Shown: positions 8,005 to 49,286 of the stretch, piece by piece
How the letters are laid out: each line of letters begins with the position of its first letter
How positions within the stretch are numbered: the first letter of the stretch is position 1
Assembly (NCBI GenBank): GCA_018396755.1
Contig: JAGTQM010000004.1
Span: forward strand, 17,099 to 81,098
Source of the DNA: Candidatus Bathyarchaeota archaeon
GTDB lineage: Archaea; Thermoproteota; CALKCG01; B24
DNA length: 64,000 nt
Reading direction: 5' to 3'
Position numbers and translations under genes: made by a program
The notes under the pieces: generated by a model
Seen by the model: only the letters and a program-made list of their open reading frames with translations
What the model was told of the DNA's origin: nothing
The model's database searches: none

Positions 8005-9417
8005 TTGAAATACCTAATCGCAGTATTTGAGAAGGCTTTTAACCTATTAAAAACTATTCTTTATAGGGGTTTAATGGATTCTAGAGAGAAGATAACTCTT
8101 CTTGGAGGGGGAAGCCCCTTCATCCCATCCATGATTTACGTGATGCTTGAGAATAAAGAGGTTCTCGAGGACAGTGAAGTATGTCTTATGGATATAGACT
8201 CTACACGTCTTCCGTTGCTGACAAAACTAGCTGAGGAATTTTCTAGAAGAGCGAATGTTAAAATGACGTTTACTTGGACTACAGATCCTAGGGAGGCTCT
8301 TGATGGAGCTACGTTTGTTATGCCTGGTTATAGAATAGGCGGTGCGAAGCATATGATGTTTGATTTCGAAATACCGATGAAGTATGGAATATGTGGCGAT
8401 GAGACTGCTGGTCCCGGAGGCACGTTTATGGCTCAATGTACTATTCCGACTACTCTTGAATACTGTAGGATGATAGAGGATTTATGTCCAGATGCTTGGG
8501 TTATAAGCTACGTTAATCCTACGAATTTCGTAGCAGATGCCGTTCGAAGAGTAACGAAGGTGAAGTTTATCGCCATTTGCGACTGCTTCGCCGGCTTCGC
8601 TATGAGAACTCTCCCCGTGTGGTTGAACATGCCTCCGTTCGAGAGGAGATACTGCGTTAATGAAGATATAAGACCGCGTGCAATAGGCGTAAATCATAAC
8701 ACTTGGCTTGTAGACCTTCTAGTTAATGGGGAAGATGGCTATCCCTTACTCAGAAGTATACTTAGAAAATACAAGGAGAGTAGAGAGAAGGGCGTTCCAG
8801 TGTCTTTCCGAGGACCAGACGATTTTACAATGCGTCTCTTTGAAACATACGGCTATGTAAACATCTGTGCATATCACTGTCACATGTACTGGGAGCACAA
8901 TAAAGCTATGGAGATTAGGAAGAGAATACCTGAAGCGTCTCTATTGGGATAGTCTAAGTCGGCTTGGGACTTCGTCAACGAAATGCTTGCTGGCGCCGAC
9001 TACGATTCTAACCGCCCAGAATATTGCTTCCACTTACACCACGCTAGACATGCTATAGGGATAATGGTCAGCATTATCGCCAACGAGGGACGCGAATGGG
9101 GAGGCATAAACTTTCCAAATAATGGCGCCATAGGAAATCTACCTAGGAACGCCATAGTGGAAGGTCTATGTATAGTTGATAGAAGAGGAATAACGCCAAT
9201 AGTCGTAGGAGATCTTCCAAAACCATTACTAGGACTTACACTGCATACTTTAAACTGGCAAGAGCTTACAGTAGATGCAGTTCTTACAGGAGATAAAGCC
9301 CTCTTATATCAAGCTCTTCTGGCATGTCCCTATGTTCACGATATGGAAGCCGCTAGAAAGATAATGAACGATCTTCTAATAGCTCACGCAGAGTTCATGC
9401 CACAGTTTAAGAAATAG
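8005..9417 (+). pseudogene. GH4-family NAD+/Mn2+-dependent glycosidase (alpha-glucosidase/6-phospho-glucosidase-like) interrupted by an in-frame TAG at 8950-8952. The likely true ATG start is at 8074.
   Basis: ORFs 8005..8952 and 8983..9417 are in the same frame. The N-terminal part has the GGGS Rossmann motif and the AICDC region. The C-terminal part has INFPNNGAIGNLP...VGDLP, typical of GH4 C-termini. Alignment to the intact paralog at 47982..49286 is collinear across the stop with no indel. Confidence 0.75.
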
Positions 9418-9578
9418 CCGTAAGCAATTTGAAAAGAGGTCTTCAGAAGATACTATTTGAACGTTATATCTCCAACTATTTTTAAACTCTTTCTATATAT
9501 AGTCGTCTACAAGTTAGAATTGTTAATTTAACCGTTAAATATAAATAATTCCCTAAGATAACTTAATTTACGGTTGAA

Positions 9579-11549
9579 ATGTCAAGGGAAGTAGTTAAGG
9601 AGAAGTTTCCATGGTTGCTTGTGATACTTGTACCGCTCATTTTAGGCTTCATAGGTCCCATATGGCAGTTGCTCATAGGCAGCTTCCCCTACTGGATTGC
9701 TAATGCATTAGGAGAATCTGTCTGCCACATAGGGTTAACTACAGCGCCATTTCTGACTCTTCTTGTAACAGCTCCGCTCTATAGGATTAAGTCTTTAAGA
9801 GACAGACTAGGCATTAAAACTCTAGCATACTTATACATAAGCTCTTTAACGACATCATATTTTATCCACTATCCATGGGCATTATGTACGCACTACATGT
9901 ATGCGCTCAGAATCACATTGCGTGAACTTGCAGATATGGTTATACCGACCTTTATGGCTCCTCCATATGAGGTTGCTATTCTACTATCAGAAGGTGGTCC
10001 AATAGATTGGAGTGCTTGGGCAACACCGATCACTTGGTACTGGCTTCTCAACGTAACTGTAAGCTTTTTCATGTTATCGTTGGCTACTCTATTTAGAAGG
10101 CTCTGGATAGATATTGAGAAGGTTCCGTTTCCACACGCTTTAGTCGCATATGAACTAGCTGAAAATAGTACCGCGGAGAAGGGTTGGAGTAGATTCTTCC
10201 TAATAGGAGTAGTCTTAGGTCTGGCTTTCCAAATTCCAGTAACCCTTACAGGAATATTTCCATGGTTCCCAGACATCTACGGCGTCAACTATAGATCATG
10301 TCCTATGTTGACCCGATGGTTTGGCGGCGATGAACCCATGGGCACTATACCAGGTATGATGAGTATGACGTATAGTCCTACAGCAGTAGCAATAGCTTAT
10401 ATGGTTCCTCTACATGTACAGTTTAGCACGTGGTTCTTTGCCTTAATGTACATAATAGCTGTTCAAATATCCTACTACATGGGCTATTATACTGGAATAA
10501 CGGGTATAGGTACGTGTGGTAGGTACTGGTGCAGTCCATCTCCATCTACAGATCCGCCTCTTAAATTTATGGCTATAGCCGTAGGTGCTCTCATAGCATT
10601 AGGTATTATGCATTTAATACTTAACAGGCGATATCTTACTGAAACGTTTAAAGCAGTGTCCATAGGCTCTGATGAATTTAAAGAAGAGGCTATGAGTTAC
10701 AGAGCATGTTACATGATGCTGGCTATTGCCCTCATAGCTTCCACGGCGTTCTGGATGTGGTCTACTATGTCGTTTTTAGATGCATTGGTTATGGCTCTAA
10801 CGGCTTTTTGCATATGGTATCCAATGAGCCGTCTTTTTGGATTAGCTGGAGCATACTGGAGAAGCGTCGATAAAGGTTTCGTCTTCTTTAGACTTCTCTA
10901 TCCGACGTGTCATGATCCACCGACAACTCGAGAATTCCTAGTGTTCAGAATGTCCACTTTCCTATCAGATACTCCATCATATCCGTGGGGTGGTGCAGCC
11001 ATTTCATCTTTCACCTCTTATAAATTCGCCAGCCTTGCTGGTTTAAGTGCAAGAGACACATTTAAAACTCTAGCCATAGCTTTTCTAATAGCACCTCTAG
11101 TGTCGAACGTTGCACTCGTATGGATTCTACATACAGTAGGCGGTAGACGTATAGGAATATGGTCGAGTTGGTATCTAGGAGGGACTTGGGCCTTAACTGG
11201 CGTATCTACGGGATGGATTACACTACCGGCTCGTGATCCTTGGGTTGAATATAGTATAATAGGTGCTATAGTAGCGATTGTTCTCAGCTTGCTTCACGCT
11301 AGATTCGTATGGTTTCCGCTTGAACCAATCGGCTACATACTGGGTACTACATGTGCTTCAGCCTTATTTGGGCTATGGTCTGCGTTTCTAGTTGCATGGA
11401 TACTTAAAATGATAACTCTACGAATTGGAGGAGCTAAACTCTACGAAGGCTGTGGTGTTCCAATAGCCTCAGGTGCCGTAACAGGATGCATGATAGGAAT
11501 GATACTAGGCGGAATAGTATGGATAACGAGATTCTTCATACCATTCTAA
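9579..11549 (+). CDS. Large polytopic membrane protein, uncharacterised family (paralog A)
   Basis: 656 aa and very hydrophobic, with many predicted TM helices. Conserved motifs shared with paralogs at 52762..54765 and 61237..63248: IDIEKVPFPHA, FPWFPD, YYTGITG, CGRYWCSPSPSTDPPLKF, and C-terminal RIGGAKLYEG. Confidence 0.8.
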   Translation: MSREVVKEKFPWLLVILVPLILGFIGPIWQLLIGSFPYWIANALGESVCHIGLTTAPFLTLLVTAPLYRIKSLRDRLGIKTLAYLYISSLTTSYFIHYPWALCTHYMYALRITLRELADMVIPTFMAPPYEVAILLSEGGPIDWSAWATPITWYWLLNVTVSFFMLSLATLFRRLWIDIEKVPFPHALVAYELAENSTAEKGWSRFFLIGVVLGLAFQIPVTLTGIFPWFPDIYGVNYRSCPMLTRWFGGDEPMGTIPGMMSMTYSPTAVAIAYMVPLHVQFSTWFFALMYIIAVQISYYMGYYTGITGIGTCGRYWCSPSPSTDPPLKFMAIAVGALIALGIMHLILNRRYLTETFKAVSIGSDEFKEEAMSYRACYMMLAIALIASTAFWMWSTMSFLDALVMALTAFCIWYPMSRLFGLAGAYWRSVDKGFVFFRLLYPTCHDPPTTREFLVFRMSTFLSDTPSYPWGGAAISSFTSYKFASLAGLSARDTFKTLAIAFLIAPLVSNVALVWILHTVGGRRIGIWSSWYLGGTWALTGVSTGWITLPARDPWVEYSIIGAIVAIVLSLLHARFVWFPLEPIGYILGTTCASALFGLWSAFLVAWILKMITLRIGGAKLYEGCGVPIASGAVTGCMIGMILGGIVWITRFFIPF

Positions 11550-11656
11550 ATAAACCCCCACCATTTTTCCTCCTGTAACCTCTACGTAAGATGATTTTTT
11601 AATGTAAATTCACGGTAAAACCTTTAAAGGTCTTACATTAAATTTTCAAATCAAAA

Positions 11657-14600
11657 TTGTCCACTAGAAGTTTTAACTCTAAAAATGATAGAGCCGTAAA
11701 GGTTTGGGAAGAGCATGTTGTTAAGCCCACCTACAAGATATTAAGGGAGGACAATCTTCCATATTTTATGAGTAAACACTACCCTTATACTAGGCTAGAC
11801 TTCTTCGATACAAAACCCACCCCGGTCAATTATAGGGAAGTCGTTATGGAGAATGAATACCTCAAAATATCCGTTAGACCGGAGCTTGGCGCCCGCCTAT
11901 TCTCAGCATTTGATAAAATATCTGAAAATCAAGTATTCCACTACGTTGACACAATTAGACCCTTCTTAATAGCTCAAAGGGGTGCATGGATTGCAGGAGG
12001 ATTAGAGTTTAACCTATGCCAACATCCAAGCCATACAGCAGACAATTTTTCACCAGTCGATTACGTATACGTCGTACATGAAGATGGAAGCGCTTCAATA
12101 TTGATAGGCAGCCTCATACTGTACACCAACGTAAGATACTTGGTCGAAATGACTCTAAGACCTAAAACGGCTAGGATAGATATTCGCGTAAAAACTTTCA
12201 ACACGGACCTTATTCCTCAGAGGTACTACTTCTGGTCTAACGCCGCCGTCTCTGCAAGCGAAAAGCTTCGCTTCTTCTACCCGGGCTCTCTTTCAAACAT
12301 AGGTAAATTCCCGGCGAATGAGGAAGGCGTTGACTTAAGCTGGTATGTGAACTACGATAGACCATTAAGCATATTCATCATAGATTCTGAAGAAGACTTT
12401 TTCGCAGCGTATGACTATAAGTCTTCCAGAGGACTGGTTCACTATGCAGATCACAATATTATCCTCGGGAAGAAGATATTCAGCTGGGGGCTATCTGAAG
12501 ATGGTTTATTCTGGAAAAACCTCCTATCGGATAAAGATATACCTTACGTAGAGATTCAAAGTGGGCGTTTTCTAACGCAGGGGATTGTTGAGCTTATAGA
12601 TCCACTGAGCTTCGAATCATGGGAAGAATACTGGTATCCAGTTCGAGATATGAATGGGATAACATATGCCAATGAAAAAGCAGCAATCTACGTGAATGAG
12701 GAAAATAAAGCTGAGCGTAGGCTTCAGATCAATGTATGCTCAACCATATCATGTGAAGCTAAACTCGTATTGTATGCAGACGGAGAGAAATTCTATGAAG
12801 AACTAGTAGAGCTTCTCCCTGAGAAGACGCTTAAGAGGAATATTAAAGCGCCGCCCGGAAAATTGCTGCTTAAAATAATTGACTTAAACGGAAGGGAAGT
12901 GATTTCATGGGACTTTCGAAGTTACAAGATAAAACCGCATGAAGCCCCATCTTGGATCAGAGAAGTCCCGAATTGGAATTGGAATAATGCCGTTGAAGAG
13001 CTTTGGCTGAAGGGGGTTGAATCTGCGAAGAGGGAGACGTTTCTTAAAGCCGAAAGATACTTCACGTCTTCTTTGGAGAAGGATGGTGTCTTCTCTAAAA
13101 GCTTATGTTCTCTAGGTCTTTTACGTTATAGATCGGGTCTATACGATGAAGCCGCATCCCTCTTTCAGAGGGCATTGACGAGAAATCCATACAATGAAGA
13201 GGCGCGTTATTACCTCGGTTTAACTATGCTTGTTTTAAATAATCTTGATGGAGCTGAGAGAGAACTCTGGAGAGTTTCCTCGAAGATAGGCTACAGATCA
13301 CTAGCTCTATACCTTCTAGGCATCATAAGGATGAGGTTAAAAGCATATGATGATGCCGAAAATCTACTGCGAAGGTCGATACAAGAATGCGGTTACAATT
13401 TGAAGGCTCTATGCGCTCTCTCTATGAGTCTTAGAAAACAGGGAAAGCGTGAGGAAGCGTGGAAGGTTTTAGAGGAAGCGTATCATATAATGCCTCTTGA
13501 CTACTTGGTACTTGCGGAAAGGTATCTTCTATCTTCTGATGAGGAGTTTAAAAGGGTGGTTTTCACAAGTTTCCAGAAGGTTTTGGAGGTGTCAAAAGGT
13601 TACATGTTTGCTGGCTTGTTTGAAGATTCACTGACGATATTGAAAGCAGCGCTGGACTATGGTATACGTAATCCGCTAATCTACTATTACATAGGATATT
13701 CTTATAAGAAGATTGGTAGGTTTAACGATGCTATAGACTACTACAAATACGGAAGTAGAGAAAACATCGATTATATTTTTCCGCACAGGTTAGAGGATTT
13801 GGAGGTTCTCAAAGATATCGTTAGTAGTCTTCCATCGGATCCAACACCGCATTATTTACTCGGCAACGTCTTATTCTATTTGGGACGATTTAAAGAAGGC
13901 CTCGAGAAGTGGGAGAGGGCTTACATGCTTGGATTGAGAAGTTCTGTACTTTCACGTAATATTGGATATGCTTACGCTGTCTTGACATTAGACTATAATA
14001 GGGCTATTAACATGTACTTGGAGGCTATAAGACTTGAACCTGAAAATCATAAACTCTATGTGGAGCTGGATGAGATTTACTCAAAGATCGGTTACTACAC
14101 TGAACGTGTTAAATTGCTAGAGAATACGCCTCAGGAAGCCAGGCATAGCGCACTGCTTGCTAGACTTGCCTCAGCATACGTTGACGCTGGAGAATACGAG
14201 AAGGCTCTAAATATTCTGTATAACACATTTTTCGAGCCTATGGAAGGTTACTATGGGTTTTGGGAAATTTACGTTGATGCACTTATGGCTAAAGGATTTA
14301 CACTTTTCAAGAACTGTATGTTTGAAGATGCGGCGAAATGCTTCATAGAAGCTATGAGCTATCCCAAAAACCTCGGTATAGGTGCACCGCATCTAAAATA
14401 TAGACAAGATTTAATGCAACTCTACTATGTCGGTTTAGTATATGAAAGACTCGGAGAATTTTCTACTGCGCAAAGAATATGGTCTAATGCTCTTCAACGA
14501 TTTTCTGGGGACCATGAGAATCGCATATTTAAAGCGTTGATTTTACGAAAACTGGGAAAAATCGAAGAATCTGAGCTTATGCTTAGAAAAGTAGTTGACG

Positions 14601-14845
14601 AAGCCAAGTCAGAATTGGATAGGATGTCTGAGGGATTAGGCGATGAAAATAGCTACTTAGTATATGTACATGGAGCTGACGTTTCATTTGCAAACTTACA
14701 TTATGTGTTGGGGCTTGGATACATTGCTCGAGGAATGGTGGAAGCAGGGGTCGAAGAGATAGATAAATCGTTGAAATTGACCAAGGTTATTAGACACGCG
14801 CGATGGATTAAAGATGGTATGATTCCAATATCGTCGCTTCTCTAG
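11657..14845 (+). CDS. Large DUF5107-like protein with C-terminal TPR repeats
   Basis: 1062 aa. The N-terminal region (VKVWEEHVVKPTY...) resembles the DUF5107 family. The C-terminal half is rich in TPR-like Y/A/L repeats. TTG start at 11657, with no nearby ATG. Confidence 0.5.
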   Translation: MSTRSFNSKNDRAVKVWEEHVVKPTYKILREDNLPYFMSKHYPYTRLDFFDTKPTPVNYREVVMENEYLKISVRPELGARLFSAFDKISENQVFHYVDTIRPFLIAQRGAWIAGGLEFNLCQHPSHTADNFSPVDYVYVVHEDGSASILIGSLILYTNVRYLVEMTLRPKTARIDIRVKTFNTDLIPQRYYFWSNAAVSASEKLRFFYPGSLSNIGKFPANEEGVDLSWYVNYDRPLSIFIIDSEEDFFAAYDYKSSRGLVHYADHNIILGKKIFSWGLSEDGLFWKNLLSDKDIPYVEIQSGRFLTQGIVELIDPLSFESWEEYWYPVRDMNGITYANEKAAIYVNEENKAERRLQINVCSTISCEAKLVLYADGEKFYEELVELLPEKTLKRNIKAPPGKLLLKIIDLNGREVISWDFRSYKIKPHEAPSWIREVPNWNWNNAVEELWLKGVESAKRETFLKAERYFTSSLEKDGVFSKSLCSLGLLRYRSGLYDEAASLFQRALTRNPYNEEARYYLGLTMLVLNNLDGAERELWRVSSKIGYRSLALYLLGIIRMRLKAYDDAENLLRRSIQECGYNLKALCALSMSLRKQGKREEAWKVLEEAYHIMPLDYLVLAERYLLSSDEEFKRVVFTSFQKVLEVSKGYMFAGLFEDSLTILKAALDYGIRNPLIYYYIGYSYKKIGRFNDAIDYYKYGSRENIDYIFPHRLEDLEVLKDIVSSLPSDPTPHYLLGNVLFYLGRFKEGLEKWERAYMLGLRSSVLSRNIGYAYAVLTLDYNRAINMYLEAIRLEPENHKLYVELDEIYSKIGYYTERVKLLENTPQEARHSALLARLASAYVDAGEYEKALNILYNTFFEPMEGYYGFWEIYVDALMAKGFTLFKNCMFEDAAKCFIEAMSYPKNLGIGAPHLKYRQDLMQLYYVGLVYERLGEFSTAQRIWSNALQRFSGDHENRIFKALILRKLGKIEESELMLRKVVDEAKSELDRMSEGLGDENSYLVYVHGADVSFANLHYVLGLGYIARGMVEAGVEEIDKSLKLTKVIRHARWIKDGMIPISSLL

Positions 14846-14902
14846 GTATGTAGATTTCAAGTAAGTATCCGTTCAATTATTCTACGATCTTCTAGTACTA
14901 CC

Positions 14903-15199
14903 TTAACTACGTTTAAACCGTAGATTTATTGGCTTTCCCTCTGATAGGATCTTCTCCGGTATTCTGTTTTTCCACTTTTCAAGAAACTCTAAGTCTTCTT
15001 TCAAATTTCTAAGCTCATCTGGAAGCATTTCAGGAATTTCATCACGTATTGGATAAAATCTATTACACTTAGAACACCATATAAGACCTTCTACGATTTC
15101 ACCGTCTTCCTTTTCTTCAAATACGAAGAGCTCAAGAGGATGGTGTTTGTCGATAGGGCATGCCAATATATCCATAAGTCTTCTCTTCAACAGATTCAC
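14903..15199 (-). CDS. Trm112-family small zinc-ribbon protein (methyltransferase activator-like)
   Basis: LMDILACPIDKH...CSKCNRFYPI, Trm112/DUF343-like. Its start overlaps the stop of the upstream Gfo oxidoreductase. Confidence 0.6.
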   Translation of the reverse strand: MNLLKRRLMDILACPIDKHHPLELFVFEEKEDGEIVEGLIWCSKCNRFYPIRDEIPEMLPDELRNLKEDLEFLEKWKNRIPEKILSEGKPINLRFKRS

Positions 15200-16131
15200 C
15201 TCAAATAAATCCTTTCACCTTTATAACCAGATTTAAGTATTGCCTCACATATCTTAAGTGCTTCCACTCCATCATCAGCCGTTAGAAGTAGGCTCTCCTT
15301 ACCTAAAACAGCATTGATAAAGTGTTTAAGCTCCCTCATTAAAGGCTCTTCCCACTTAACAGTCGGCTGAAGAACTTTTTCAGAATCTTCTATTAAAACT
15401 TCTTGAGATATGTAATCTAGCGAAACAGTAGCCTCGCTTCCAGTGATTATCAGAGACCTGATCCTGCGGGGTGTAAGCCAGTTGGCCTCTATAAACCCTG
15501 TAACTTCACTTTCAAAGTGGAGAATCGCTTCAGCGTAGTCTTCAAATCTATGCCTGAGACTGCCAACCTTGGCGTAAACGCTCTCAACATCGCCTATGAG
15601 GAAACGCATGACATCTAAATCGTGTATAGCAGAATCTTTAACAACACCCACGTCTCCTATGCGTTCAGGCCATCTAGAAACTCTTCTAGCAGTTATAAGT
15701 ATAATTCGGCCGAGTGCACCGTTATCTATCAATGTCTTAATTCTCCCCACGGCTGGGTTAAAGCGTTCTATATGGCCTGGCATGAGTCTAAGTCCTAAAC
15801 TGTAAGCTAAATCTCGAAGCTTCTCAGCCTCCTCTAAAGTGCTACATAAAGGCTTCTCCGTTAAACTGTGTACACCATGGTTTAAAACCTCAGATGTTAT
15901 CTCAAAATGCGTGGTCGTTGGTGTGCATATACTTACAGCATCTGGCTTTTCAACAAGAAGCATCTCCTTAAAATCACTGTATGCTCTACATCCATATCTC
16001 TTAGCTACGCTTTTAGATCTTTCACGGTCTATATCGCATACTGCAACAAGTTCAACGTCCTCTATCTCGCTATAGACTCTAGCATGGTTCCTACCCCAGA
16101 AACCTACACCTATGACCGCTACCTTAGTCAA
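15196..16131 (-). CDS. Gfo/Idh/MocA-family NAD(P)-dependent oxidoreductase (WbpB-like UDP-sugar 3-dehydrogenase candidate)
   Basis: VAVIGVGFWGRNHARVY Rossmann motif. Probable TTG start at 16131, giving MTKVAVIGVGFWG. It overlaps the stop of the upstream dehydrogenase in a TTGACTAA arrangement. The ORF-track GTG at 16185 would add an atypical 18 aa extension. Confidence 0.75.
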   Translation of the reverse strand: MTKVAVIGVGFWGRNHARVYSEIEDVELVAVCDIDRERSKSVAKRYGCRAYSDFKEMLLVEKPDAVSICTPTTTHFEITSEVLNHGVHSLTEKPLCSTLEEAEKLRDLAYSLGLRLMPGHIERFNPAVGRIKTLIDNGALGRIILITARRVSRWPERIGDVGVVKDSAIHDLDVMRFLIGDVESVYAKVGSLRHRFEDYAEAILHFESEVTGFIEANWLTPRRIRSLIITGSEATVSLDYISQEVLIEDSEKVLQPTVKWEEPLMRELKHFINAVLGKESLLLTADDGVEALKICEAILKSGYKGERIYLR

Positions 16132-17500
16132 CAGAATCAGCTCCCACGCCGACGTATATAAGGTTGGCTTTTTCAACTTCTTCACGGTTAAATATTCTGC
16201 CGAAGTCTACTATGGCTATAGTCTTACTCTCAGGGCTTCTAAAGTCGCTTAAGCTTATGTTTTTAAATACATCGTGTGGTGTAGCTATGATTACACAATC
16301 AACATCTCTGAGAGTCCTCTTAAGGCTTAAAGACGTTTTAAAGCCCATACCTCTAATTTCATCGCGTGTAAAATATGGATCATACACCACCACTTCAGCT
16401 CCCCTCTTCAGTAGCTCATTTGCTAATTTAAGACTATAGGAGTTTCTAGTATTTTTAACATTTGGTTTAAAACTTAACCCAAGTACAAGTATCCTAGAGC
16501 GTCTAAGAGGTTTCCCAAGCCTTCTTAAAGCCTTAATCACAAGTGCATAACCGTGTTTAAGGAGGATATCATTAACTTTTAAAGTTACTTTGAGCGTACG
16601 TAAGCTGAAATTAACGTTTTCAGCTGAATTCTGCAAGAGTTGAGCATCCTTAGGCAGATGACCACCCACACCTATGCTAGGTTTAAGAAGATGGCAGAAT
16701 GGCTGAGTTGTGGCAGCCTTCAATACTTCAACATAATCTACACCTATTTTTTCACATAAGACCGCTAGCTCATGGCTAATAACCAGTGCGGCAAACCGAT
16801 AGAAGTTTTCAAAAAGTTTGACAGTTTCAGCTGTTTTAATATCCCTAACTCTAACAATCCCCCCTTCAACAACTGTTTTCAAAACAGCCTCACTAATTGC
16901 AAGGCTTTTAGGTCCAACTGCTCCAACAACTCTAGGATAACTTACAAGATCCCTCAGCAATGATCCCTCCGCTCCTCTGAGGGGGCTATAGGAAAAACCG
17001 AAGTCTTGCTCAGCCTTTAAATTAGACAATGCCTCAATTCTCTCTTTAACCACTTCTTCAGTTACACCTGGACCAGTTGTACTGCTTTGAATAATAAGAC
17101 TACCCCTCGTCATACACGTACCTAAATCTTCTGCAATTTTACGGAGGGGGAAGTAGTCTGGAATACCGAGTTGACTTACTGAAGCCGATATGACAATCAT
17201 GATTATCTCAGAATCGTTAACAGCGGATTTGACATCTGTAGTTGGGTGAAATTTTTCCATCCTAAGCACTTTCTGAAGAAGTGCTCGAAGTCCCGGTTCA
17301 GAGTTTGGAATTACACCACGCTTAAGCTTGTCAACAAGTTCTACGTTTGCGTCTACTCCATAAACTTCAACCCCTTTATCCGCGTAAAGGCAAGCTAACG
17401 GTAGACCCATAACTCCACAGCCTATTACGCTCAGTTTAAGATTTCCTTTAGTAAGCATCTCAGGAATTTCCTCAGGATTTAGATCCATTATATTAGTCAT
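16124..17500 (-). CDS. NDP-sugar dehydrogenase (UDP-glucose/UDP-GlcNAc/UDP-ManNAc 6-dehydrogenase family, WbpA/WecC-like)
   Basis: LSVIGCGVMGLPLACLYADKGVEVYGVD N-terminal NAD-binding fold. 458 aa, typical of the UDP-Glc/GDP-Man dehydrogenase family. Confidence 0.8.
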   Translation of the reverse strand: MTNIMDLNPEEIPEMLTKGNLKLSVIGCGVMGLPLACLYADKGVEVYGVDANVELVDKLKRGVIPNSEPGLRALLQKVLRMEKFHPTTDVKSAVNDSEIIMIVISASVSQLGIPDYFPLRKIAEDLGTCMTRGSLIIQSSTTGPGVTEEVVKERIEALSNLKAEQDFGFSYSPLRGAEGSLLRDLVSYPRVVGAVGPKSLAISEAVLKTVVEGGIVRVRDIKTAETVKLFENFYRFAALVISHELAVLCEKIGVDYVEVLKAATTQPFCHLLKPSIGVGGHLPKDAQLLQNSAENVNFSLRTLKVTLKVNDILLKHGYALVIKALRRLGKPLRRSRILVLGLSFKPNVKNTRNSYSLKLANELLKRGAEVVVYDPYFTRDEIRGMGFKTSLSLKRTLRDVDCVIIATPHDVFKNISLSDFRSPESKTIAIVDFGRIFNREEVEKANLIYVGVGADSVD

Positions 17501-17992: not shown

Positions 17993-19066
17993 ATGAGAGT
18001 TTTACTTGACATTTTAACGCCAAAGCAATGTAGATTTTTCTCAGTTTTGGGAAGAGAGCTTGAGAAACGGAGTTTCGAAGTCTATAAAACGGCTAGAGTA
18101 TTTAGGGAAGTTGTTGGACTTTTAGAAGCCTTAGGTGAAGAGGCCTACTTAGTAGGTAGATATGGCGGGGCAACGCTTGAAGGAAAGCTTGAAGCCAGTT
18201 TGAAGCGGATGATAGAACTTAAGAAGGTTTTCCAGAAAATTAGACCTAATCTAGTTGTATCCTTCTCCTCTCCAGAAGCATCTAGAGTAGCCTTCGGGCT
18301 AAATATACCTCATGTAGCTGTAAATGATAGTCCACATTCAAACGCTGTGGCAAGACTATCAATTCCACTGTCTAAAATGCTGTTCACACCTTGGATTATA
18401 CCTAAGAATGCTTGGACAGTATACGGTATAGAACCTTCTAGGATTTTTAAATATAAGGCTCTAGATCCAGCTGCGTGGCTTAAGAATTTTAAACCGGATC
18501 TAAATATTGTTAAATCATTGGGGCTATCTAAGGAGAAGCCAATAGTAGTATTCAGGCTTGAAGAAAGCCAAGCGTCGTACATACTTGGCATGGGCGGTCT
18601 CGTCGAAGAAATAGCTTTAAAAGTCATTCAAAGATTTGACATTCAACCAGTTATAATGCCTAGATATGAGGAGCAATTGCAGAAAATCTTAGAAAAATTT
18701 AACGTAAAGGCTCTAGTATTGGAAAAAACAATAGATGCCGCAAACCTATTGTGCTCAGCTACGGTGTTTGTAGGAGGTGGGGGGACTATGAACTCTGAAG
18801 CTGCTTTGTTAGGTGTTCCAGTAATTTCATGCTACCCTGGTGAAGAAACATACGTTGAGAAATTCCTTATAGGTAAAGGTTTCCTATGTAAAGTCTTCAA
18901 CTCAGAAGAAGCTTTAAAACTTATAGAGCGTTTTCTAAAGTTTCGCGAAAAGGTTAAGTTTGAGAGAAAAGCTAGAAAGCTTTTAGCTTCTATGGTAAAT
19001 CCCGCAGAGTTTATAGCGGAGAAAATTGCTCAAACTTTTTCCCATGAATCTTCTTCTCAAGTTTAG
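17993..19066 (+). CDS. DUF354-family protein (archaeal glycosyltransferase / UDP-GlcNAc 2-epimerase-like fold)
   Basis: MRVLLDILTPKQCRFFSVLGRELEKRSFEV... resembles DUF354 N-termini. A GT-B-like glycine-rich segment (VFVGGGGTMNSEAALLGVP) is present. Confidence 0.55.
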   Translation: MRVLLDILTPKQCRFFSVLGRELEKRSFEVYKTARVFREVVGLLEALGEEAYLVGRYGGATLEGKLEASLKRMIELKKVFQKIRPNLVVSFSSPEASRVAFGLNIPHVAVNDSPHSNAVARLSIPLSKMLFTPWIIPKNAWTVYGIEPSRIFKYKALDPAAWLKNFKPDLNIVKSLGLSKEKPIVVFRLEESQASYILGMGGLVEEIALKVIQRFDIQPVIMPRYEEQLQKILEKFNVKALVLEKTIDAANLLCSATVFVGGGGTMNSEAALLGVPVISCYPGEETYVEKFLIGKGFLCKVFNSEEALKLIERFLKFREKVKFERKARKLLASMVNPAEFIAEKIAQTFSHESSSQV

Positions 19067-33979: not shown

Positions 33980-35731
33980 TCAGAAGTCGATAGCATTATG
34001 TATTTTAGCTATTTGCTCTGGATCCACCTTCCACCTTCTATCGTAAGTCATATACCCGTTTAATTCACCCTCTACGTCGTAGAGTTGAGTATAGCAAAAG
34101 CCTGCTAAAAATTCACATTCACGTATGGCCCTTACATTCTCCCTATACCTTGTTAGAAATTCGTACTCATCTGTAACCGGAGGACCGTAAACCATAATCT
34201 CACGATCTACAACAGGTCTAAATCCTTTGATCCCCCATCCTCCCCACTCGCTTAAAACTATGGGTTGATTATCGTACTTAAAGTCTTCAATAGCTATTCT
34301 AAACTCTCTAGGTTCTCCTGTTTTTAAAGATTGAACTCTCTTCAGGAGAACTTCTTTGAAGTACTTACGTCCTCTCCAACCGCTGTAATCGTGAATATCG
34401 ATTATATCTGTGGGTCCTACGTGGCTGTAACCACTATTATCCACAAGAAGCCTTGTTGGATCTAAACGTTTAATTCTCAGGCAGACTTCTTCTATAAACC
34501 TACGGTGTTCAAGGTTGTTACGTACAGTCTCCCTCTCATTGAATGGAACCCATGCCACTATCGACGGATGGTTGAAATCCCTGAGTATTACAGATTCCAC
34601 TTCCCCCCAGAAGTTATCAAGGTTTTTATATTCAAGGCTCATACCCCAATCTGGCATTTCCTCCCAAACTAGAACTCCGAGTTTATCACACCAGTAGAGA
34701 TATCTAGGGTCTTCAGGTTTCTGATGTTTCCTAACACCGTTTAATCCAAGCTTCTTAACAGCTTCAACGTCTCTTTTTAAGGCGTCAATATTAGGAGCTA
34801 CATATAATCCATCTGGGAAAAAGCCCTGATCCAATGCAAATTTAAGATAAATGGGTTTATTATTTAGTGTTATTTTTCCATTTGCAACATCTATCTTTCT
34901 TAAACCAAAATATCCCCTAACCTTATCTAAAACTATGTCATTCTTCTCAATCATAAGCTCAATTGCATATAAGTCAGGCTCCTCAGGAGACCATAAACAT
35001 ACTTCTTGAAGCTCCAGTGAAATTCGTAGAGGATTTTCTTTCACTTCCTGGGTTAAATTGATGAGTTCAGACTCAGCTAGGAGAACTCTCAATCTAAGCT
35101 TCAAATTGTTAAGCTGTCCGTTTACATACGTGTACAATTGAAACCCGTTATGCTCAACATCTGGAAAAATCTGAAACCTATCTATCCAAGCACTTCCACA
35201 CGATTCTATCCATACTGGTTGCCATATTCCAGTAACCCTCATATACGTGCATCCGGAAGGTTTAAGTCTTGGATCTTGTTTCCCCCTCGCTTGGTCTCCA
35301 TGGCAATCCTCTACTCTTAAAACAAGAATGTTTTCGTGGTCAACATGGTCTGTTATATCAAAGCTAAAAGGTGAAAATCCTCCTACATGTTCACCTAGGT
35401 TTTTCCCATTAAGCCACACAGTAGTCTTATAATCCATGGCTCCAAATTTGAGTAGAACTTTAGTCTGTCTGAAATCTTCGCTGAGTTTAAACGTTTTGGA
35501 ATACCATACAACATTATGTATGGATCCATCTCCTATTCCACTTAATTTGCTTTGAAATGGGTATGGGACTCTTATCTTCACTGGTTCAGGCAATCCATTT
35601 AAAAACCATTTTTCATTCAATCCTATGTTATCATCGTCAAAGTTAAAATCCCATAGTGGTTCAAGACTCATCCAAGGACTTCTAATGAAGTCTGGTCTAG
35701 GTGTCTCCGCATCATGAACCATAGTTATCAC
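33980..35731 (-). CDS. Glycoside hydrolase family 2 (beta-galactosidase/beta-glucuronidase/beta-mannosidase-like)
   Basis: WYSKTF...TTVWLNGKNLGEHVGGFSPFSFDIT sugar-binding domain. NHPSIVAWVPFNE (acid/base NE) and SEWG (nucleophile) TIM-barrel motifs. Confidence 0.75.
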   Translation of the reverse strand: MITMVHDAETPRPDFIRSPWMSLEPLWDFNFDDDNIGLNEKWFLNGLPEPVKIRVPYPFQSKLSGIGDGSIHNVVWYSKTFKLSEDFRQTKVLLKFGAMDYKTTVWLNGKNLGEHVGGFSPFSFDITDHVDHENILVLRVEDCHGDQARGKQDPRLKPSGCTYMRVTGIWQPVWIESCGSAWIDRFQIFPDVEHNGFQLYTYVNGQLNNLKLRLRVLLAESELINLTQEVKENPLRISLELQEVCLWSPEEPDLYAIELMIEKNDIVLDKVRGYFGLRKIDVANGKITLNNKPIYLKFALDQGFFPDGLYVAPNIDALKRDVEAVKKLGLNGVRKHQKPEDPRYLYWCDKLGVLVWEEMPDWGMSLEYKNLDNFWGEVESVILRDFNHPSIVAWVPFNERETVRNNLEHRRFIEEVCLRIKRLDPTRLLVDNSGYSHVGPTDIIDIHDYSGWRGRKYFKEVLLKRVQSLKTGEPREFRIAIEDFKYDNQPIVLSEWGGWGIKGFRPVVDREIMVYGPPVTDEYEFLTRYRENVRAIRECEFLAGFCYTQLYDVEGELNGYMTYDRRWKVDPEQIAKIHNAIDF

Positions 35732-41384: not shown

Positions 41385-42746
41385 TCACGGAATTTCATAC
41401 CTACCTTGTATCCCTTTAATGGTGCGTTGTTTAATCCTCTGGAAAACACTTCCAAACGCCTTAGCCAGTCTCTTCGCCTCTTCAGGGAATTCATCTATTA
41501 GATTTCTACTCTCTCTAGGATCATCTTTAATATTATATAATTCATCTGGTTGACCTTCAGGTCGTTGAATTAAAGACCACTCTTCATCTCTTATACATCT
41601 GTCTACACCTTCATAGTATCCAGATATCGCATAACTTCTATGATTGTTTGATTCACCCATTAAAACAGGTAGAAAACTTCTTCCATGTATAGGAAACGTA
41701 TCCCATTTAAAGCCCAGCATTTCTAAAAGTGTTGGTAGTAGGTCTGGAAATTGAATTATAACGTTTGTTTTCCTAGCTTTTTCACCACCTGGCAGTCTAA
41801 CCATAAATGGAATCTTAAGAAGCTCATTGTATAATCTATCTACGCCTTTGAGGAATTTCCCGTGGTCTGCAAGTGGATGTCCGTGATCAGCTGTTAGAAC
41901 GATAACAGAATCGTCATAGTATCCTAAATCCTCAAGCTCTTTAAAGAGGTGGCCAAGCCAATAGTCTACGAATGTTACCTCCCCCGCGTATAGTCCTCTT
42001 ATGTAACGTATTTCTTCGGAGGTTGCCCACTCAGAAGCATAGCCTCCCATTGGAAGTATGAGTCTAGCCCCCTCATAATTATGGTCCGTGTAAATGTCAA
42101 ATTTTGGAGGTGGATCCCAAGGCTCATGCGGGTCGAAACAGTCTATCCAAAGGAAAATCTTATTGTATCTAGCGGCTCTGGATCTTCTAAGCCATTTTAA
42201 AGACTCCATAACAACTTTAGCTGGAAACCAATCTCCCTCTCTTGAAAAGTCTTCGGTATTGGCCAGAAACCTTGCCACCAGGTTCTTCCATGTATCAGTG
42301 TAGTTTTTGTTCACGTAGTCTTCCACTTTCTTCTTAAGAGGCGGTGGAGGAATGTAGGAATCGTACTCTTGACCTCTAATCCACGTGAAACTATGAAAGC
42401 TCTTATGGAAGTTCATATTTGGTCTAGCAAGATGATACGTGTCTGAAATCAAACCACATATGTATCCTTCTCTACTTAAAATATCAGCCAGTGTTATATC
42501 TTCGCTTTCCAACGGGCTCCAAGGCCTGTAAGGTAACGTATAATGTCCAGTCATAAGCTCTGTTCTTACAGGTATTGTCGGTAAACCGCATGGATAAGCG
42601 TTTTCAAAAACTACACATTCATCTGCAAACTTATCTATGTTAGGTGTTTTACAAGTTGGAATGTTTTCGAAAACTGGTTTTCCTCCATTGTAGAAGCTTA
42701 CATGGTCCTGCCTTAAACTATCTACAACTATTACTATGATATTCAA
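41385..42746 (-). CDS. Sulfatase-family (alkaline-phosphatase superfamily) hydrolase with Thr in place of the formylglycine Cys/Ser
   Basis: IVIVVDSLRQDH metal-binding N-terminus. PTIPVRTELMTGHY aligns to CxPSRxxLLTGRY with Thr at the Cys position. No signal peptide. Confidence 0.65.
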   Translation of the reverse strand: MNIIVIVVDSLRQDHVSFYNGGKPVFENIPTCKTPNIDKFADECVVFENAYPCGLPTIPVRTELMTGHYTLPYRPWSPLESEDITLADILSREGYICGLISDTYHLARPNMNFHKSFHSFTWIRGQEYDSYIPPPPLKKKVEDYVNKNYTDTWKNLVARFLANTEDFSREGDWFPAKVVMESLKWLRRSRAARYNKIFLWIDCFDPHEPWDPPPKFDIYTDHNYEGARLILPMGGYASEWATSEEIRYIRGLYAGEVTFVDYWLGHLFKELEDLGYYDDSVIVLTADHGHPLADHGKFLKGVDRLYNELLKIPFMVRLPGGEKARKTNVIIQFPDLLPTLLEMLGFKWDTFPIHGRSFLPVLMGESNNHRSYAISGYYEGVDRCIRDEEWSLIQRPEGQPDELYNIKDDPRESRNLIDEFPEEAKRLAKAFGSVFQRIKQRTIKGIQGRYEIP

Positions 42747-42939: not shown

Positions 42940-44115
42940 TTAAAAAGTTTTAAGACTTAAGGTTTTATATTTTTCAAAGAGGTTTTTCACACCTCTGTCT
43001 TGAACAATCACAACATCTTCCAACCTCATTCCAAACTTATCCGTATAAACTCCGGGCTCAACTGTATGAGTAGTGTTTCTTCTGAGAATATCTCTTGATG
43101 TTGGATGTAAAGTTGGTGCCTCATGTATTCTCAAACCAACTCCATGGCCTAACCTATGCGGAAAAAACTTGGAGAAACCTTTTCTAGCTATAAGACTTCT
43201 AGCAGCTTCATCAACACTAGAGGCTTCTACTCCATCATATTCAAACCTATAGACCTCCTCCTGTGCCTCTAATACTGTATAGTAGATAGCCTCCTGCTCA
43301 CTTGAAGGTTTACCTAAAACCCACGTTCTAGTGATATCCACCCAATATCCATCGGCACATACGTTAAGCTCTAAAAGTATGACGTCGCCTCTTCTAATTC
43401 TTCTATCCGTTGAAATATTAAATGGATACCACGCTTTAGATGTATTCTCACCGGACATTACAAATGCAAAACCTCTAGCTCTTTTAACCTTGTTTTCAAA
43501 CCCAACGCCTTCACTATATACCGTCGCCTCAACGACCGAAGCGAGCGTGCTCTCCTTTACTCCTTCTGAAACATTTTTAAGAAGTTTTTCAATGGCTAAA
43601 GATGCGAGTTTGGCTGAAAGCTTCATCTTTTCGATTTCATATTCTGATTTAACAGATCTGAGTTTTACTATAATTCTAGAAGCGTCAACCAATTCTGCTT
43701 CAAATACTTTATGGAGCATTTTAAAAGTTGGAACACTAGCGTAGTTCACTTCGCCTACGATGCTATTAGTGGCAACTGTTTCGAAGCTAAGCTCGCAACC
43801 GATTTTGACATACTTATGATGTTTAAGCTCTTCTAAAGCTTTAGATATAACCTTGTATGGGTTCCAAACTTCATTTAAACCTTCACCTTCATATGGTCTT
43901 ATATCCTTAACCCACCCATCTTTAGCATATTCCAGCTCAGAAACTGGCACTATTAAAACTGGCTCCCCCTCCAATGGTAGGAATGCTAAAGACCACCCTG
44001 TAATAGGCCAGTAACCCGTCAGGTACAAGACATTTTCAGGATTTCTACATATGAGGAGCTCCAGCCCTTCCTTTTCCATAGCTTGTCTAATGTTTATCAG
44101 TCTAGCCGAACCCAT
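42940..44115 (-). CDS. M24-family metallopeptidase (Xaa-Pro aminopeptidase/prolidase-like)
   Basis: HRLGHGVGLRIHEAP and other pita-bread fold metal ligands. Creatinase-like N-terminal domain. Confidence 0.8.
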   Translation of the reverse strand: MGSARLINIRQAMEKEGLELLICRNPENVLYLTGYWPITGWSLAFLPLEGEPVLIVPVSELEYAKDGWVKDIRPYEGEGLNEVWNPYKVISKALEELKHHKYVKIGCELSFETVATNSIVGEVNYASVPTFKMLHKVFEAELVDASRIIVKLRSVKSEYEIEKMKLSAKLASLAIEKLLKNVSEGVKESTLASVVEATVYSEGVGFENKVKRARGFAFVMSGENTSKAWYPFNISTDRRIRRGDVILLELNVCADGYWVDITRTWVLGKPSSEQEAIYYTVLEAQEEVYRFEYDGVEASSVDEAARSLIARKGFSKFFPHRLGHGVGLRIHEAPTLHPTSRDILRRNTTHTVEPGVYTDKFGMRLEDVVIVQDRGVKNLFEKYKTLSLKTF

Positions 44116-44217: not shown

Positions 44218-45003
44218 TTAATACCCTCTTGCTTCACCAGCGACTTCTCTTCCGAATCTACTTAGAAGCTCTCTAAACCCGGACATTAGAATCTTCATAT
44301 CGCTCATTAGAGCTACGAATCTGAAACCGTCTTTTATCATTTTTTCAGCCATTTCAACGTTAAATGTATGAATACCTGGAACTACGTCGTTTTTCTCACA
44401 AGTCTCCTTAATTTTCCTCAGAGCATTCTTAAACTTGAGATGGTCATATCTAGTAGGTATGCCTAGGTTTACGGATAGATCCATGGGACCCACATAAGCT
44501 ACATCTATTCCATCGACTGAAAGTATCTCCTCCAGGTTTTCAAGAGACTTGGCTGTTTCAATCTGAACTATGACTACGAGTTCTTCCACCTCAAATTTCT
44601 CGTAGTACTTTATAAAGTCCTGCCTGCCGAATCTGATACATCTTCTAGGTCCAACACCCCTAATCCCCCTGGGAGGATATCTTGAGGCTGCTACAGCGGC
44701 TTCGGCCTCGGCTCTACTGTTAACCCATGGTATTAAAACTCCTTGCATACCGACATCTAAAACCCGTTTAACCATGACGAGATCATTCCACGGGACTCTT
44801 GCAAGCGGAGCAATGTTAACTCCTTTTAAAGGCATTGTAAGAATCTCAAGATCTCCAACATCTATGGGTGCGTGTTCCATGTCGAAAACAAACCAATCAA
44901 AAGGCAACTCGGATAAAGCATCTACCACATCTGGATGGTTTATAGTGATCCAAGTTCCAAGAGCTACGCCCCCATCTTTAAGAAGCTTTTTTAAATTACT
45001 CAT
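44218..45003 (-). CDS. HpcH/HpaI-family aldolase (2-keto-3-deoxy-sugar-acid aldolase-like)
   Basis: LGTWITINHPDVVDALSELPFDWFVFDMEHAP matches the HpcH/HpaI N-terminal signature. ATG at 45003. Confidence 0.7.
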   Translation of the reverse strand: MSNLKKLLKDGGVALGTWITINHPDVVDALSELPFDWFVFDMEHAPIDVGDLEILTMPLKGVNIAPLARVPWNDLVMVKRVLDVGMQGVLIPWVNSRAEAEAAVAASRYPPRGIRGVGPRRCIRFGRQDFIKYYEKFEVEELVVIVQIETAKSLENLEEILSVDGIDVAYVGPMDLSVNLGIPTRYDHLKFKNALRKIKETCEKNDVVPGIHTFNVEMAEKMIKDGFRFVALMSDMKILMSGFRELLSRFGREVAGEARGY

Positions 45004-45111
45004 AACGAACACCAACGGTAGAAATACGCTATAGTATAATTTAAGTTAAACGATTTCCCTAGGGGCTTTAGCCTTTTAAATAGCTTTACGTTAATCCTAA
45101 GTGGTGGTCTT

Positions 45112-47981: not shown

Positions 47982-49286
47982 CTAAGAAAATCCTTTAAGG
48001 TATTTTTCTTCAGCTTTAAACATTTCATCTACCATTGTTCTTATCTCATCTATAGTAAGCATTGCACTAGTCAGTGGATCTACCAGTATTGCGTGAAATA
48101 CCAGCTCTTTACTCTTCTCTAAGACGGCTCTAGTTGCAAGCTCTTGAACATTTATATTCATTCTATTTAAAGCTACACATTGCGGAGGTAGCTTGCCAAC
48201 ATAGCAAGGATGTATCCCAGTTTTATCTACAAGACAAGGAACTTCAACGCAGCAGCCATATGGAAGATTTACAATCAATCCGGTATTCCTAACGTTTCCG
48301 TAGATTAAGCTAGGCATACCCGTTTCCATCGAATATATTATTGTAGAACAGTATTCTGCACTTCTACGTATAGGTATTTTCTCAGGGCTCTCAACCAATT
48401 TTCTAAACGCCTCATCCTCTTTCCCTCTATCCTCCATAAATTGGATGCGCCTTAAACCCCTCCCCAATTTAAACTTCTCCATTACATCTTGTCTTTTTCT
48501 GAAATAGGGCAAGTACTCAGACAGATGGTGGCTTGACTCGCTTGGATAATAGCCTACGGCTTTGAAAACCTCTATTCTAACAAGATCCCTTCCAGCAGAA
48601 CTCTTGTAAAAATCAGGATCCTCGATCTTCTTCCTTAAAATGGGGTAGGCGTCTTTTCCACGCCATTTAAACTCTAGAAACCAACTCATGTGATTTATTC
48701 CAGCTGCACGGTACGATATTTCTGTTGGAGGAACATTTATGTAATTTGCGAGGGTGTACGCGGTACCTTGAACACTATGGCATAATCCTACCACGTTTAC
48801 TTTAGTGGCTTCATATACACTCCAACATATTATAGCCATGGGATTCGTATAATTCATCAGAAGAGCATCGGGACATAATTCCTCCATATCGTAGCATATG
48901 TCTAGTATAGCTGAAGCATTTTTCAAACCGTAGAATACACCTCCAGGTCCAACAGTATCTCCTACAGCCTGATCTACTCCATATTTTAAAGGTATCTCCA
49001 AATCGAGCTTCGTAGCTTCAAGGCCGCCTACTCTAATAGACGTTACAACATAATCCGCCCCCTCTAAAGCCTCTCTACGATCGGTCGTAGCCTCTATCTT
49101 AGTTTTAAAACCCCACTGATCCACGAGTTTTCTCGCGAAAGCTTCTGTGAGACTCAGCCTATCTTTATCTATGTCTACAAGGCTAATGGTGCAATCTCTA
49201 AGCTCGGGATACGACAGTATGTCTGTTATGAGATTTTGACCGAATACATGGCTTCCAGCGCCTATGAGAACGACTTTAAACGTCAT
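47982..49286 (-). CDS. GH4-family glycosidase (NAD+/Mn2+-dependent alpha-glucosidase/alpha-galactosidase-like), intact
   Basis: KVVLIGAGSHVFG Rossmann motif, NYTNPM, GLCHSVQGT (Cys-His metal site), and C-terminal NLPYGCCVEVPC...GKLPP. Confidence 0.8.
   Translation of the reverse strand: MTFKVVLIGAGSHVFGQNLITDILSYPELRDCTISLVDIDKDRLSLTEAFARKLVDQWGFKTKIEATTDRREALEGADYVVTSIRVGGLEATKLDLEIPLKYGVDQAVGDTVGPGGVFYGLKNASAILDICYDMEELCPDALLMNYTNPMAIICWSVYEATKVNVVGLCHSVQGTAYTLANYINVPPTEISYRAAGINHMSWFLEFKWRGKDAYPILRKKIEDPDFYKSSAGRDLVRIEVFKAVGYYPSESSHHLSEYLPYFRKRQDVMEKFKLGRGLRRIQFMEDRGKEDEAFRKLVESPEKIPIRRSAEYCSTIIYSMETGMPSLIYGNVRNTGLIVNLPYGCCVEVPCLVDKTGIHPCYVGKLPPQCVALNRMNINVQELATRAVLEKSKELVFHAILVDPLTSAMLTIDEIRTMVDEMFKAEEKYLKGFS

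Follow-up and report, generated by a model that had tools for sequence, protein, structure and literature searches.

A 64,000-nucleotide stretch of a Candidatus Bathyarchaeota archaeon genome (assembly GCA_018396755.1, contig JAGTQM010000004.1, positions 17,099 to 81,098; hereafter the window) carries three related genes for large membrane proteins in the vicinity of genes for sugar metabolism, and it raises the question of what these three proteins do. An earlier note on this DNA had proposed that they form an uncharacterized carbohydrate transport or processing system. Here, we report that they belong to a large, catalogued family, DUF6785 with DUF6784, whose modeled fold is that of the OPT/YSL transporters. 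We consider it likely, from the combined analysis, that the family consists of ion-coupled importers of the OPT/YSL type with substrate-specialized paralogues, and that a subset of these paralogues would serve carbohydrates.

Family membership and predicted fold of the three proteins

The three genes, which we refer to as copies 1, 2 and 3 (Table 1), were confirmed as open reading frames (ORFs) with long collinear similarity, as the earlier note had described. Copies 1 and 2 are 39% identical from end to end (BLASTP E 2e-147). Copy 3 is disrupted, and a single frame switch, directly after its YYTGVTG motif, rejoins two overlapping ORFs into a protein of 670 aa. This protein shows approximately 30% identity with copies 1 and 2 (E 1e-69 to 1e-73), and its identity with an intact Bathyarchaeia relative at locus L077 is 66%. 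All three proteins are approximately 50% hydrophobic, and a crude hydropathy analysis gives each at least 10-12 strongly hydrophobic segments. The shared motifs that had been proposed for the three proteins hold in part: WID(I/V)EK(V/L)PFP, FPWFPD and YYTG are common to all three, whereas the cysteine-containing loop CGRxWCxPSP..DPPxKF is found in copies 1 and 2 only, having been partly lost from copy 3 at the lesion, and the C-terminal motif of copy 3 reads KMGGSKLYE and not R(I/M)GG. Alignment of copy 3 to intact members of the family (L077, L072 and L081) shows, besides the frameshift, a gap of approximately six codons in the conserved GFCGRxWC loop. This indicates a small deletion and not a homopolymer miscall, so that copy 3, as judged from its sequence, is probably a pseudogene. 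A sequencing error was considered as the cause of the break and is unlikely, since approximately six loop codons have been lost and not one homopolymer base; the break may be an assembly artefact.

The earlier note had presented these proteins as an unclassified kind. Instead, all three copies, and every homologue that we examined, score above the Pfam gathering cutoffs for DUF6785 (PF20581; cutoff 25 bits) and DUF6784 (PF20580; cutoff 26.4 bits). The DUF6785 and DUF6784 scores are 118.5 and 54.8 bits for copy 1 and 92.2 and 50.0 bits for copy 2; for copy 3, the N-terminal part scores 33.6 bits (DUF6785) and the C-terminal part 53.3 and 38.4 bits. An NCBIfam scan of the three copies gave no match. 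Likewise, no Pfam domain or fold match links the copies to ABC, MFS, SSS or PTS sugar transporters, to GT-C glycosyltransferases, to O-antigen polymerases (Wzy) or to MOP flippases.

The relationship that does emerge is to the OPT/YSL superfamily, which the earlier note had not considered. AlphaFold2, given an alignment of 43 sequences, produced a confident model of copy 1, which has a mean predicted local distance difference test (pLDDT) score of 91 and a predicted template modeling (pTM) score of 0.92, and DSSP assigns it approximately 20 helices when short ones are counted. A Foldseek search of the PDB with this model returned only barley YS1 (HvYS1; 7wsr/7wst), with E 1.5e-7, probability 1.00 and a template modeling (TM) score of 0.63-0.71 over the full length, and all remaining PDB matches had TM scores below 0.2. 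At the level of fold, then, the copy 1 model falls within the OPT/YSL superfamily (YS1-type fold), and its sequence identity to HvYS1 is only 12-14%. The YS1-type fold had no other structural neighbors when it was solved. Weak sequence signal runs in the same direction: residues 149-643 of copy 1 align collinearly, and over nearly the full length, with positions 104-618 of the 623 in the Pfam OPT profile (PF03169), with E 0.0019 and 17.3 bits against a gathering cutoff of 25.8 bits. Furthermore, the OPT profile is matched by 3 of 43 close members of the family (best E 2e-7) and by 6 of 67 distant members (best E 1.1e-12), indicating that the family overall touches OPT in sequence space even though the window proteins alone do not qualify. 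The window proteins are also of the same size class as prokaryotic members of the OPT family (TC 2.A.67), which are approximately 520-700 aa long (PMC3061005), although Pfam separates them as DUF6785 and DUF6784. From fold and weak sequence signal together, we conclude that DUF6785 with DUF6784 is an offshoot of the OPT/YSL superfamily of secondary transporters that has diverged very far from the rest. The designation of these proteins as transporters, which the earlier note had also favored, is well supported.

OPT/YSL transporters carry out proton-coupled uptake of peptides or metal chelates, and they are built of core and scaffold domains with inverted structural repeats, a 16-transmembrane-segment topology having been proposed to stem from duplication. 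HvYS1 has a proton site at Asp446/490/494, a Cys250-Cys671 disulfide and a dimer contact through a C-terminal beta-strand. In the DUF6785 family, the invariant charged residues are E180, D178, D232, R173, K610, R615 and E623. An equation of the conserved helix-loop-helix elements at residues 144-197 (E180/PFP) and 556-595 (FPLEPIG) with the TM1-H1 and TM8-H6 hairpins of YS1 was dropped, as neither the Pfam OPT register nor the relative positions supported it. By analogy with barley YS1, we infer that each protein would be an ion-coupled importer, probably driven by H+ and possibly working by an elevator-type mechanism, that takes up small organic solutes, on which the enzymes of adjoining genes would then act in the cytoplasm. 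The family would have radiated into many such substrate-specialized paralogues per genome.

Size and distribution of the family

The proposal of a three-member family, triplicated within the window, did not hold. In a neighbor-joining tree of 74 full-length members, the three copies lie in three separate deep clades, at 30-39% identity to one another, and so they are old paralogues that chance to lie within 54 kb of one another and not the products of local triplication. Per-genome copy numbers are correspondingly high. These numbers were taken from the best 80 of at least 310 confirmed relatives, found in a scan of one genome per species, and hence are lower bounds: at least 12 full-length family genes in the Bathyarchaeia metagenome-assembled genome (MAG) JAVZJD01 (1.85 Mb in two scaffolds), at least 16 in the Nitrososphaerota MAG CAZWAU01, at least 11 in Brockarchaeota JZ-2.bins.136 and at least 6 in Bathyarchaeota B24. 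Among the same best 80, the window stands nearest to hot-spring Bathyarchaeia MAGs, copy 1 being 95% identical at the amino acid level to a protein of JAWCKO01 and 90% identical to one of JAVZJD01.

On a broader scale, 70 relatives were found in a set of 5.8 billion proteins, all of them nameless or labeled "DUF6785 family protein", their hosts being MAGs of Bathyarchaeia, Brockarchaeota and further Thermoproteota. Among 1.84 billion representative sequences, a profile search matched 5,322 clusters (50% identity) with the threshold at E<=1e-3 and 1,547 with it at E<=1e-30, and close and distant members proved to be one family (hhalign E 8e-98). The literature that we searched contains no mention of DUF6785 or DUF6784 (PF20581, PF20580) and nothing on Bathyarchaea in combination with the OPT family. 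The family is therefore already catalogued as a DUF, and we found no published functional or structural assignment, archaeal expansion or gene pairing for it in that literature; the fold, the genomic expansion and the neighbor pattern described here go beyond what is a functionless catalogue entry.

Several of the JAVZJD01 genes, which are found on JAVZJD010000001/2 (loci L009, L012, L023, L040, L041, L044, L067, L074, L077 and L079), lie in tandem or one gene apart, and the same pattern is seen at L006, L028 and L026. In some Bathyarchaeia loci, a polytopic membrane protein of approximately 650 aa without a Pfam match directly adjoins a DUF6785 gene (Table 1). The arrangement recurs at L084, a very distant locus of bacterial appearance; identity between the archaeal and L084 partners is 26% (E 1e-37), and a hidden Markov model (HMM) marks both as remote relatives of DUF6785 (E 7e-13 to 7e-8). 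This conserved tandem of two divergent OPT-fold genes possibly forms a heterodimer. A giant protein with an M28 peptidase and an FtsX-like permease precedes the tandem pair at L026 (331-5025), with counterparts in ORFs of 1253-1564 aa at L025 and L078 and in a 909-aa ORF that runs off the end of L044.

Neighboring genes and candidate substrates

Gene context was examined at 83 loci of the family, using crude ORF calls of our own; 93 family ORFs were identified by HMM, and their neighbors were clustered and named by Pfam. Within three genes of a family gene we counted 25 URO-D genes (19 orthogroups), 17 GFO/IDH/MocA oxidoreductases (12), 13 GH4 glycosidases (8), 11 DegT aminotransferases (6), 8 DeoC aldolases (4), 7 AP_endonuc_2 genes (7), 6 MTTB methyltransferases (4) and 4 FGGY kinases (4), and 10 of the 13 GH4 genes are directly adjacent. 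A Pfam census of 114 non-orthologous adjacent genes gave 10 URO-D, 5 GH4, 4 DegT, 4 GFO/IDH/MocA and 3 AP_endonuc_2, followed by GH53, MTTB, MFS and M20 (2 each) and GH95 and MtrH (1 each). We then compared orthogroups near a family gene (within two genes) with those far from it (five or more genes away). By these rough tests, GH4 is enriched (7 near versus 1 far, p 0.019), as are URO-D (17 versus 5, p 0.002) and MTTB (4 versus 0, p 0.04); sugar-type genes combined amount to 24/201 near versus 11/241 far (p 0.0036), and methyltransferase-type genes combined to 21 versus 5 (p 0.00017). Tight co-directional pairs also recur, namely GH4 on either side of the family gene, the family gene followed by an aldolase, DegT or URO-D gene, and the family gene between two MTTB genes. 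Adjacency to GH4 occurs in at least four deep clades of the family. Association with carbohydrate genes thus recurs in other genomes, and the carbohydrate part of the earlier proposal is partly supported. It applies to a subset of paralogues, as the corrinoid-methyltransferase-type genes URO-D and MTTB are the commonest neighbors, enriched at least as strongly as the sugar-type genes, and many loci lack sugar genes.

GH4 enzymes are NAD+-dependent and cytoplasmic, so their substrates must be imported, and a transporter gene directly beside a GH4 gene is the layout expected for glycoside import. In bacteria, GFO/IDH/MocA oxidoreductases and xylose-isomerase-like TIM-barrel proteins provide an alternative, oxidative route of glycoside cleavage; if that route holds here, the GFO/IDH/MocA and TIM-barrel neighbors of the family would fit the glycoside theme as well.

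Inside the window, the neighbors claimed for the three copies are for the most part in place, with GH4 beside copy 1, an esterase and an aldolase beside copy 2 and an FGGY kinase beside copy 3; the GH2 gene, at approximately 17 kb from the nearest copy, is beside none of them. For copy 1, the most likely cargo is an alpha-glycoside or short oligosaccharide, which would be cleaved after import by the adjacent cytoplasmic, NAD-dependent GH4. The orthologue of this GH4 comes closest to the alpha-galactosidase subfamily of GH4 in NCBIfam but scores below its cutoff. For copy 2, the most likely cargo is a sugar-type or ester-type solute that would pass, once imported, to the flanking esterase and class I aldolase. 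The pairing of copy 2 with the aldolase is kept at L020, L021, L023 and L035, with orthologues of copy 2 itself at the first three, and at L023 an orthologue of the alpha/beta-hydrolase (84% identical) occupies the equivalent position. The FGGY pairing is not kept beside L077, the closest intact relative of copy 3. The DUF5107/TPR gene was considered as a fixed partner of copy 1 and rejected: it is kept downstream of the copy 1 orthologue at L008, but L010 and L016, which are orthologous loci too, lack it, so its link to copy 1 is weak.

Table 1. Positions of the family genes and other features (window coordinates unless a locus is named)
Feature	Position	Strand	Remarks
Copy 1	9579-11549	+	Intact, 656 aa; DUF6785 + DUF6784; predicted OPT/YSL fold
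Copy 2	52762-54765	+	Intact, 667 aa; paralogue of copy 1
Copy 3	61237-63248	-	Disrupted; N-terminal ORF 62199-63248, C-terminal ORF 61237-62250; lesion near 62250-62290
GH4 glycosidase (Glyco_hydro_4, Glyco_hydro_4C)	8005-9417	+	161 nt upstream of copy 1, same strand
DUF5107 (N-terminal) + long TPR array, 1062 aa	11657-14845	+	107 nt downstream of copy 1, same strand
GFO/IDH/MocA oxidoreductase	15196-16185	-	Nearest archaeal UDP-GlcNAc 3-dehydrogenase, 333 bits vs cutoff 450
UDP-glucose/GDP-mannose dehydrogenase	16124-17500	-	Overlaps GFO/IDH/MocA gene
DUF354 gene	17993-19066		Same area near copy 1
ORF, 475 aa	24133-25560	-	No significant Pfam match
GH2 (beta-glucuronidase/beta-galactosidase-like)	33980-35731	-	Below cutoffs; ~17 kb from nearest copy
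Sulfatase	41385-42746	-	
M24 peptidase	42940-44115		Pfam; near copy 2
HpcH/HpaI-type 2-keto-3-deoxy-acid aldolase	44218-45015	-	
ORF, 363 aa	45112-46203	+	No significant Pfam match
Second GH4	47982-49286	-	3.5 kb upstream of copy 2; alpha-galactosidase NCBIfam 575.6 bits vs cutoff 486
M14 peptidase	49354-50733		Pfam; near copy 2
Alpha/beta-hydrolase (AXE1 / glucuronoyl-esterase-like / S15-like), 649 aa	50736-52685	-	Divergent from copy 2, 76-nt gap
DeoC/LacD (DhnA-type class I) aldolase	54822-55646	+	56 nt downstream of copy 2, same strand
ORF, 241 aa	58421-59146	+	No significant Pfam match; N-terminal hydrophobic segment, signal-peptide-like
FGGY carbohydrate kinase	59320-60765	-	Xylulokinase-like, below cutoff; downstream of copy 3, same strand, 471-nt gap
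Tandem partners, ~650 aa	L026 5038-6999; L025 16103-18055; L044 17153-19105; L078 7912-9903; L084 2150-4111		Adjoin DUF6785 genes

Pfam scans of all window ORFs of at least 120 aa revealed no ABC, MFS, SSS or PTS sugar transporter, in agreement with the earlier note; the other membrane proteins of the window are a P-type ATPase, an MscS channel and a band-7 protein. The sulfatase, GH2 and HpcH/HpaI aldolase genes are consistent with acidic or sulfated glycan catabolism elsewhere in the region. The window itself is archaeal; it carries genes for a thermosome, aIF2-beta and MetRS, has a GC content of approximately 40%, and yielded no tRNA in a scan of its full 64 kb.

Several observations weigh against reading these proteins as OPT/YSL-type importers with substrate-specialized paralogues. 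None of the window proteins attains Pfam OPT membership, copy 1 scoring below the cutoff and copies 2 and 3 having no match. Searches of all PDB sequences at E<=10, with a profile and with a single sequence (P0030), returned nothing, which places the relation to YS1 beyond ordinary sequence reach and visible via fold and Pfam OPT only. Comparison of the N-terminal and C-terminal halves by hhalign detected no internal repeat by sequence (probability 0.3). In the window, the GH4 gene beside copy 1 has an in-frame TAG at 8950-8952 in place of a Trp codon (TGG) conserved at L016, L010 and L008. This would be one G-to-A nonsense mutation or else a read error, and, alongside the disruption of copy 3, it suggests that genes are decaying in this strain or that the assembly contains errors. 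Genes for M14, M24 and S9 peptidases lie within 10 kb of copy 2, and the GFO/IDH/MocA gene near copy 1 is biosynthetic in appearance. Across genomes, the context is heterogeneous, with many family loci devoid of sugar genes, and the enrichment tests draw on crude ORF calls, on loci picked for carrying the family and on related, non-independent genomes.

Some of these observations lend themselves to a canonical OPT/YSL role, in which the proteins would import oligopeptides, glutathione-like peptides or metal chelates and the nearby sugar genes would be coincidental. For all characterized OPT/YSL members, the cargo is a peptide, a metal-nicotianamine or phytosiderophore complex, glutathione or folate (PMC3061005, PMC9691689, PMC12687453), and HvYS1 itself is a plant transporter of Fe(III)-phytosiderophore. 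Peptidase-type genes occur near copy 2 (M14, M24 and an S9/S15-like hydrolase) and beside other members (two M20, an M55 and the FtsX protein with an M28 domain). However, the enriched neighbors are GH4, GFO/IDH/MocA, DegT, URO-D and MTTB, and peptidases are not among them, so that, in contrast to HvYS1, the context of this mostly archaeal family points to glycosides, sugar derivatives and methylated compounds. Peptide-metabolism neighbors are not the rule, and the copy number of DUF6785, at 12-16 per genome, is lineage-specific and far higher than that of the OPT family. So many deep paralogues would be hard to account for by peptide or metal uptake alone, and the family lies far beyond the sequence range of characterized OPTs, as its low identity to HvYS1 illustrates. 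Moreover, non-peptide cargo has a precedent in the genome-context study of Saier, which proposed xylo-oligosaccharide uptake for a prokaryotic OPT subcluster, in Bacteroides, that is co-transcribed with a xylanase (PMC3061005). We consider a canonical role unlikely for the family as a whole, while classical peptide or metal-chelate uptake by some paralogues is possible.

A role in export was also weighed, in which the proteins would be exporters or flippases for cell-surface glycan synthesis that move nucleotide-sugar-derived or lipid-linked intermediates outward. The recurrent DegT/DnrJ/EryC1 and GFO/IDH/MocA neighbors are typical of UDP-amino-sugar biosynthesis, and a Polysacc_synt/MurJ-like gene precedes a family member at L086. 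Near copy 1, the UDP-GlcNAc 3-dehydrogenase-like GFO/IDH/MocA gene, the UDP-glucose/GDP-mannose dehydrogenase gene that it overlaps and the DUF354 gene probably form a module for nucleotide-sugar biosynthesis and not for catabolism. These genes, however, are on the opposite strand from copy 1 and 3.6 kb away from it, and the tightest co-directional partners of the family are catabolic (GH4, class I aldolase and methyltransferases). The fold is not that of MOP/Wzx, Wzy or GT-C proteins, and all OPT members that have been tested for transport, none of them prokaryotic, are importers. An outward role is accordingly improbable.

The prominence of URO-D, the most frequent neighbor by all three counts given above, suggests a further alternative, in which the family would mainly serve methylated or methoxylated substrates (methoxy-aromatics, methylamines or betaines) destined for corrinoid-dependent demethylation, and the sugar context of the window would be a minority case or a coincidence. 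The MTTB enrichment agrees with this, and B12-binding and MtrH genes are also present near family members. In a Bathyarchaeia O-demethylase cluster, an unnamed transmembrane protein has been proposed as a transporter of aromatic compounds (PMC10989822); we found no identifier for it in the supplement of that paper, and it may be a member of the DUF6785 family. Yet no URO-D, MTTB or B12-binding neighbor occurs at any of the three window copies, and the adjacency to GH4 arose in at least four separate clades. At L072 (325-10049) and L074 (approximately 8600-17500), the surroundings of family members mix GH4 with MTTB and URO-D genes, arranged as MTTB, URO-D, family gene, GH4, MTTB, URO-D, so the GH4 and methyltransferase contexts are not exclusive; one possible explanation is that methylated sugars such as 4-O-methyl-glucuronate are demethylated. 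A predominantly methyl-directed family is thus a slim prospect. The question bears on substrate range and not on mechanism, and it is compatible with import by an OPT/YSL-type family: to judge from the URO-D, MTTB, B12-binding and MtrH neighbors, methylated or methoxylated compounds are probably the cargo of other paralogues. Finally, a non-transport role, including the membrane-associated processing offered in the earlier note, has no support. The match to a non-transport family that the note had named as refuting its proposal did not turn up: neither profiles nor structure comparison pointed to a glycosyltransferase, to an O-antigen polymerase or to another family of that kind.

Implications for substrate uptake in Bathyarchaeia

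Bathyarchaeia have been described as being among the most abundant archaea of anoxic sediments, and lineages related to them inhabit hot springs. The parts that they play in the degradation of plant polymers, lignin-derived methoxy compounds and detrital matter have been inferred almost wholly from cytoplasmic enzymes, and the entry of substrates into their cells is essentially undescribed; the description of the Brockarchaeota, likewise, does not mention transporters. With 12-16 paralogues per small genome, an importer fold and conserved pairing with catabolic genes, the DUF6785/DUF6784 family offers concrete candidates for this missing uptake step.

Taken together, these observations allow a broader and more tentative proposal, which we put forward as a possibility and hold to be rather less than likely: DUF6785/DUF6784 proteins might be the principal means of organic-substrate uptake in thermophilic Bathyarchaeia, Brockarchaeota and related Thermoproteota, an OPT-fold radiation to at least a dozen paralogues per genome whose cargo would be glycosides, sugar derivatives and methylated or methoxylated compounds, taking the part that ABC systems play in other archaea, with tandem heterodimers in some clades. 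None of 943 ORFs flanking family genes contains both a Walker A motif and LSGGQ, a result that, coming from a biased sample, is suggestive.

The pairing of one paralogue clade with each adjoining enzyme provides a route to the prediction of substrates. If import by these proteins is borne out, the OPT superfamily would be extended past peptides and metal chelates, and a functional class would become available for the thousands of proteins that annotation pipelines now label "DUF6785 family".

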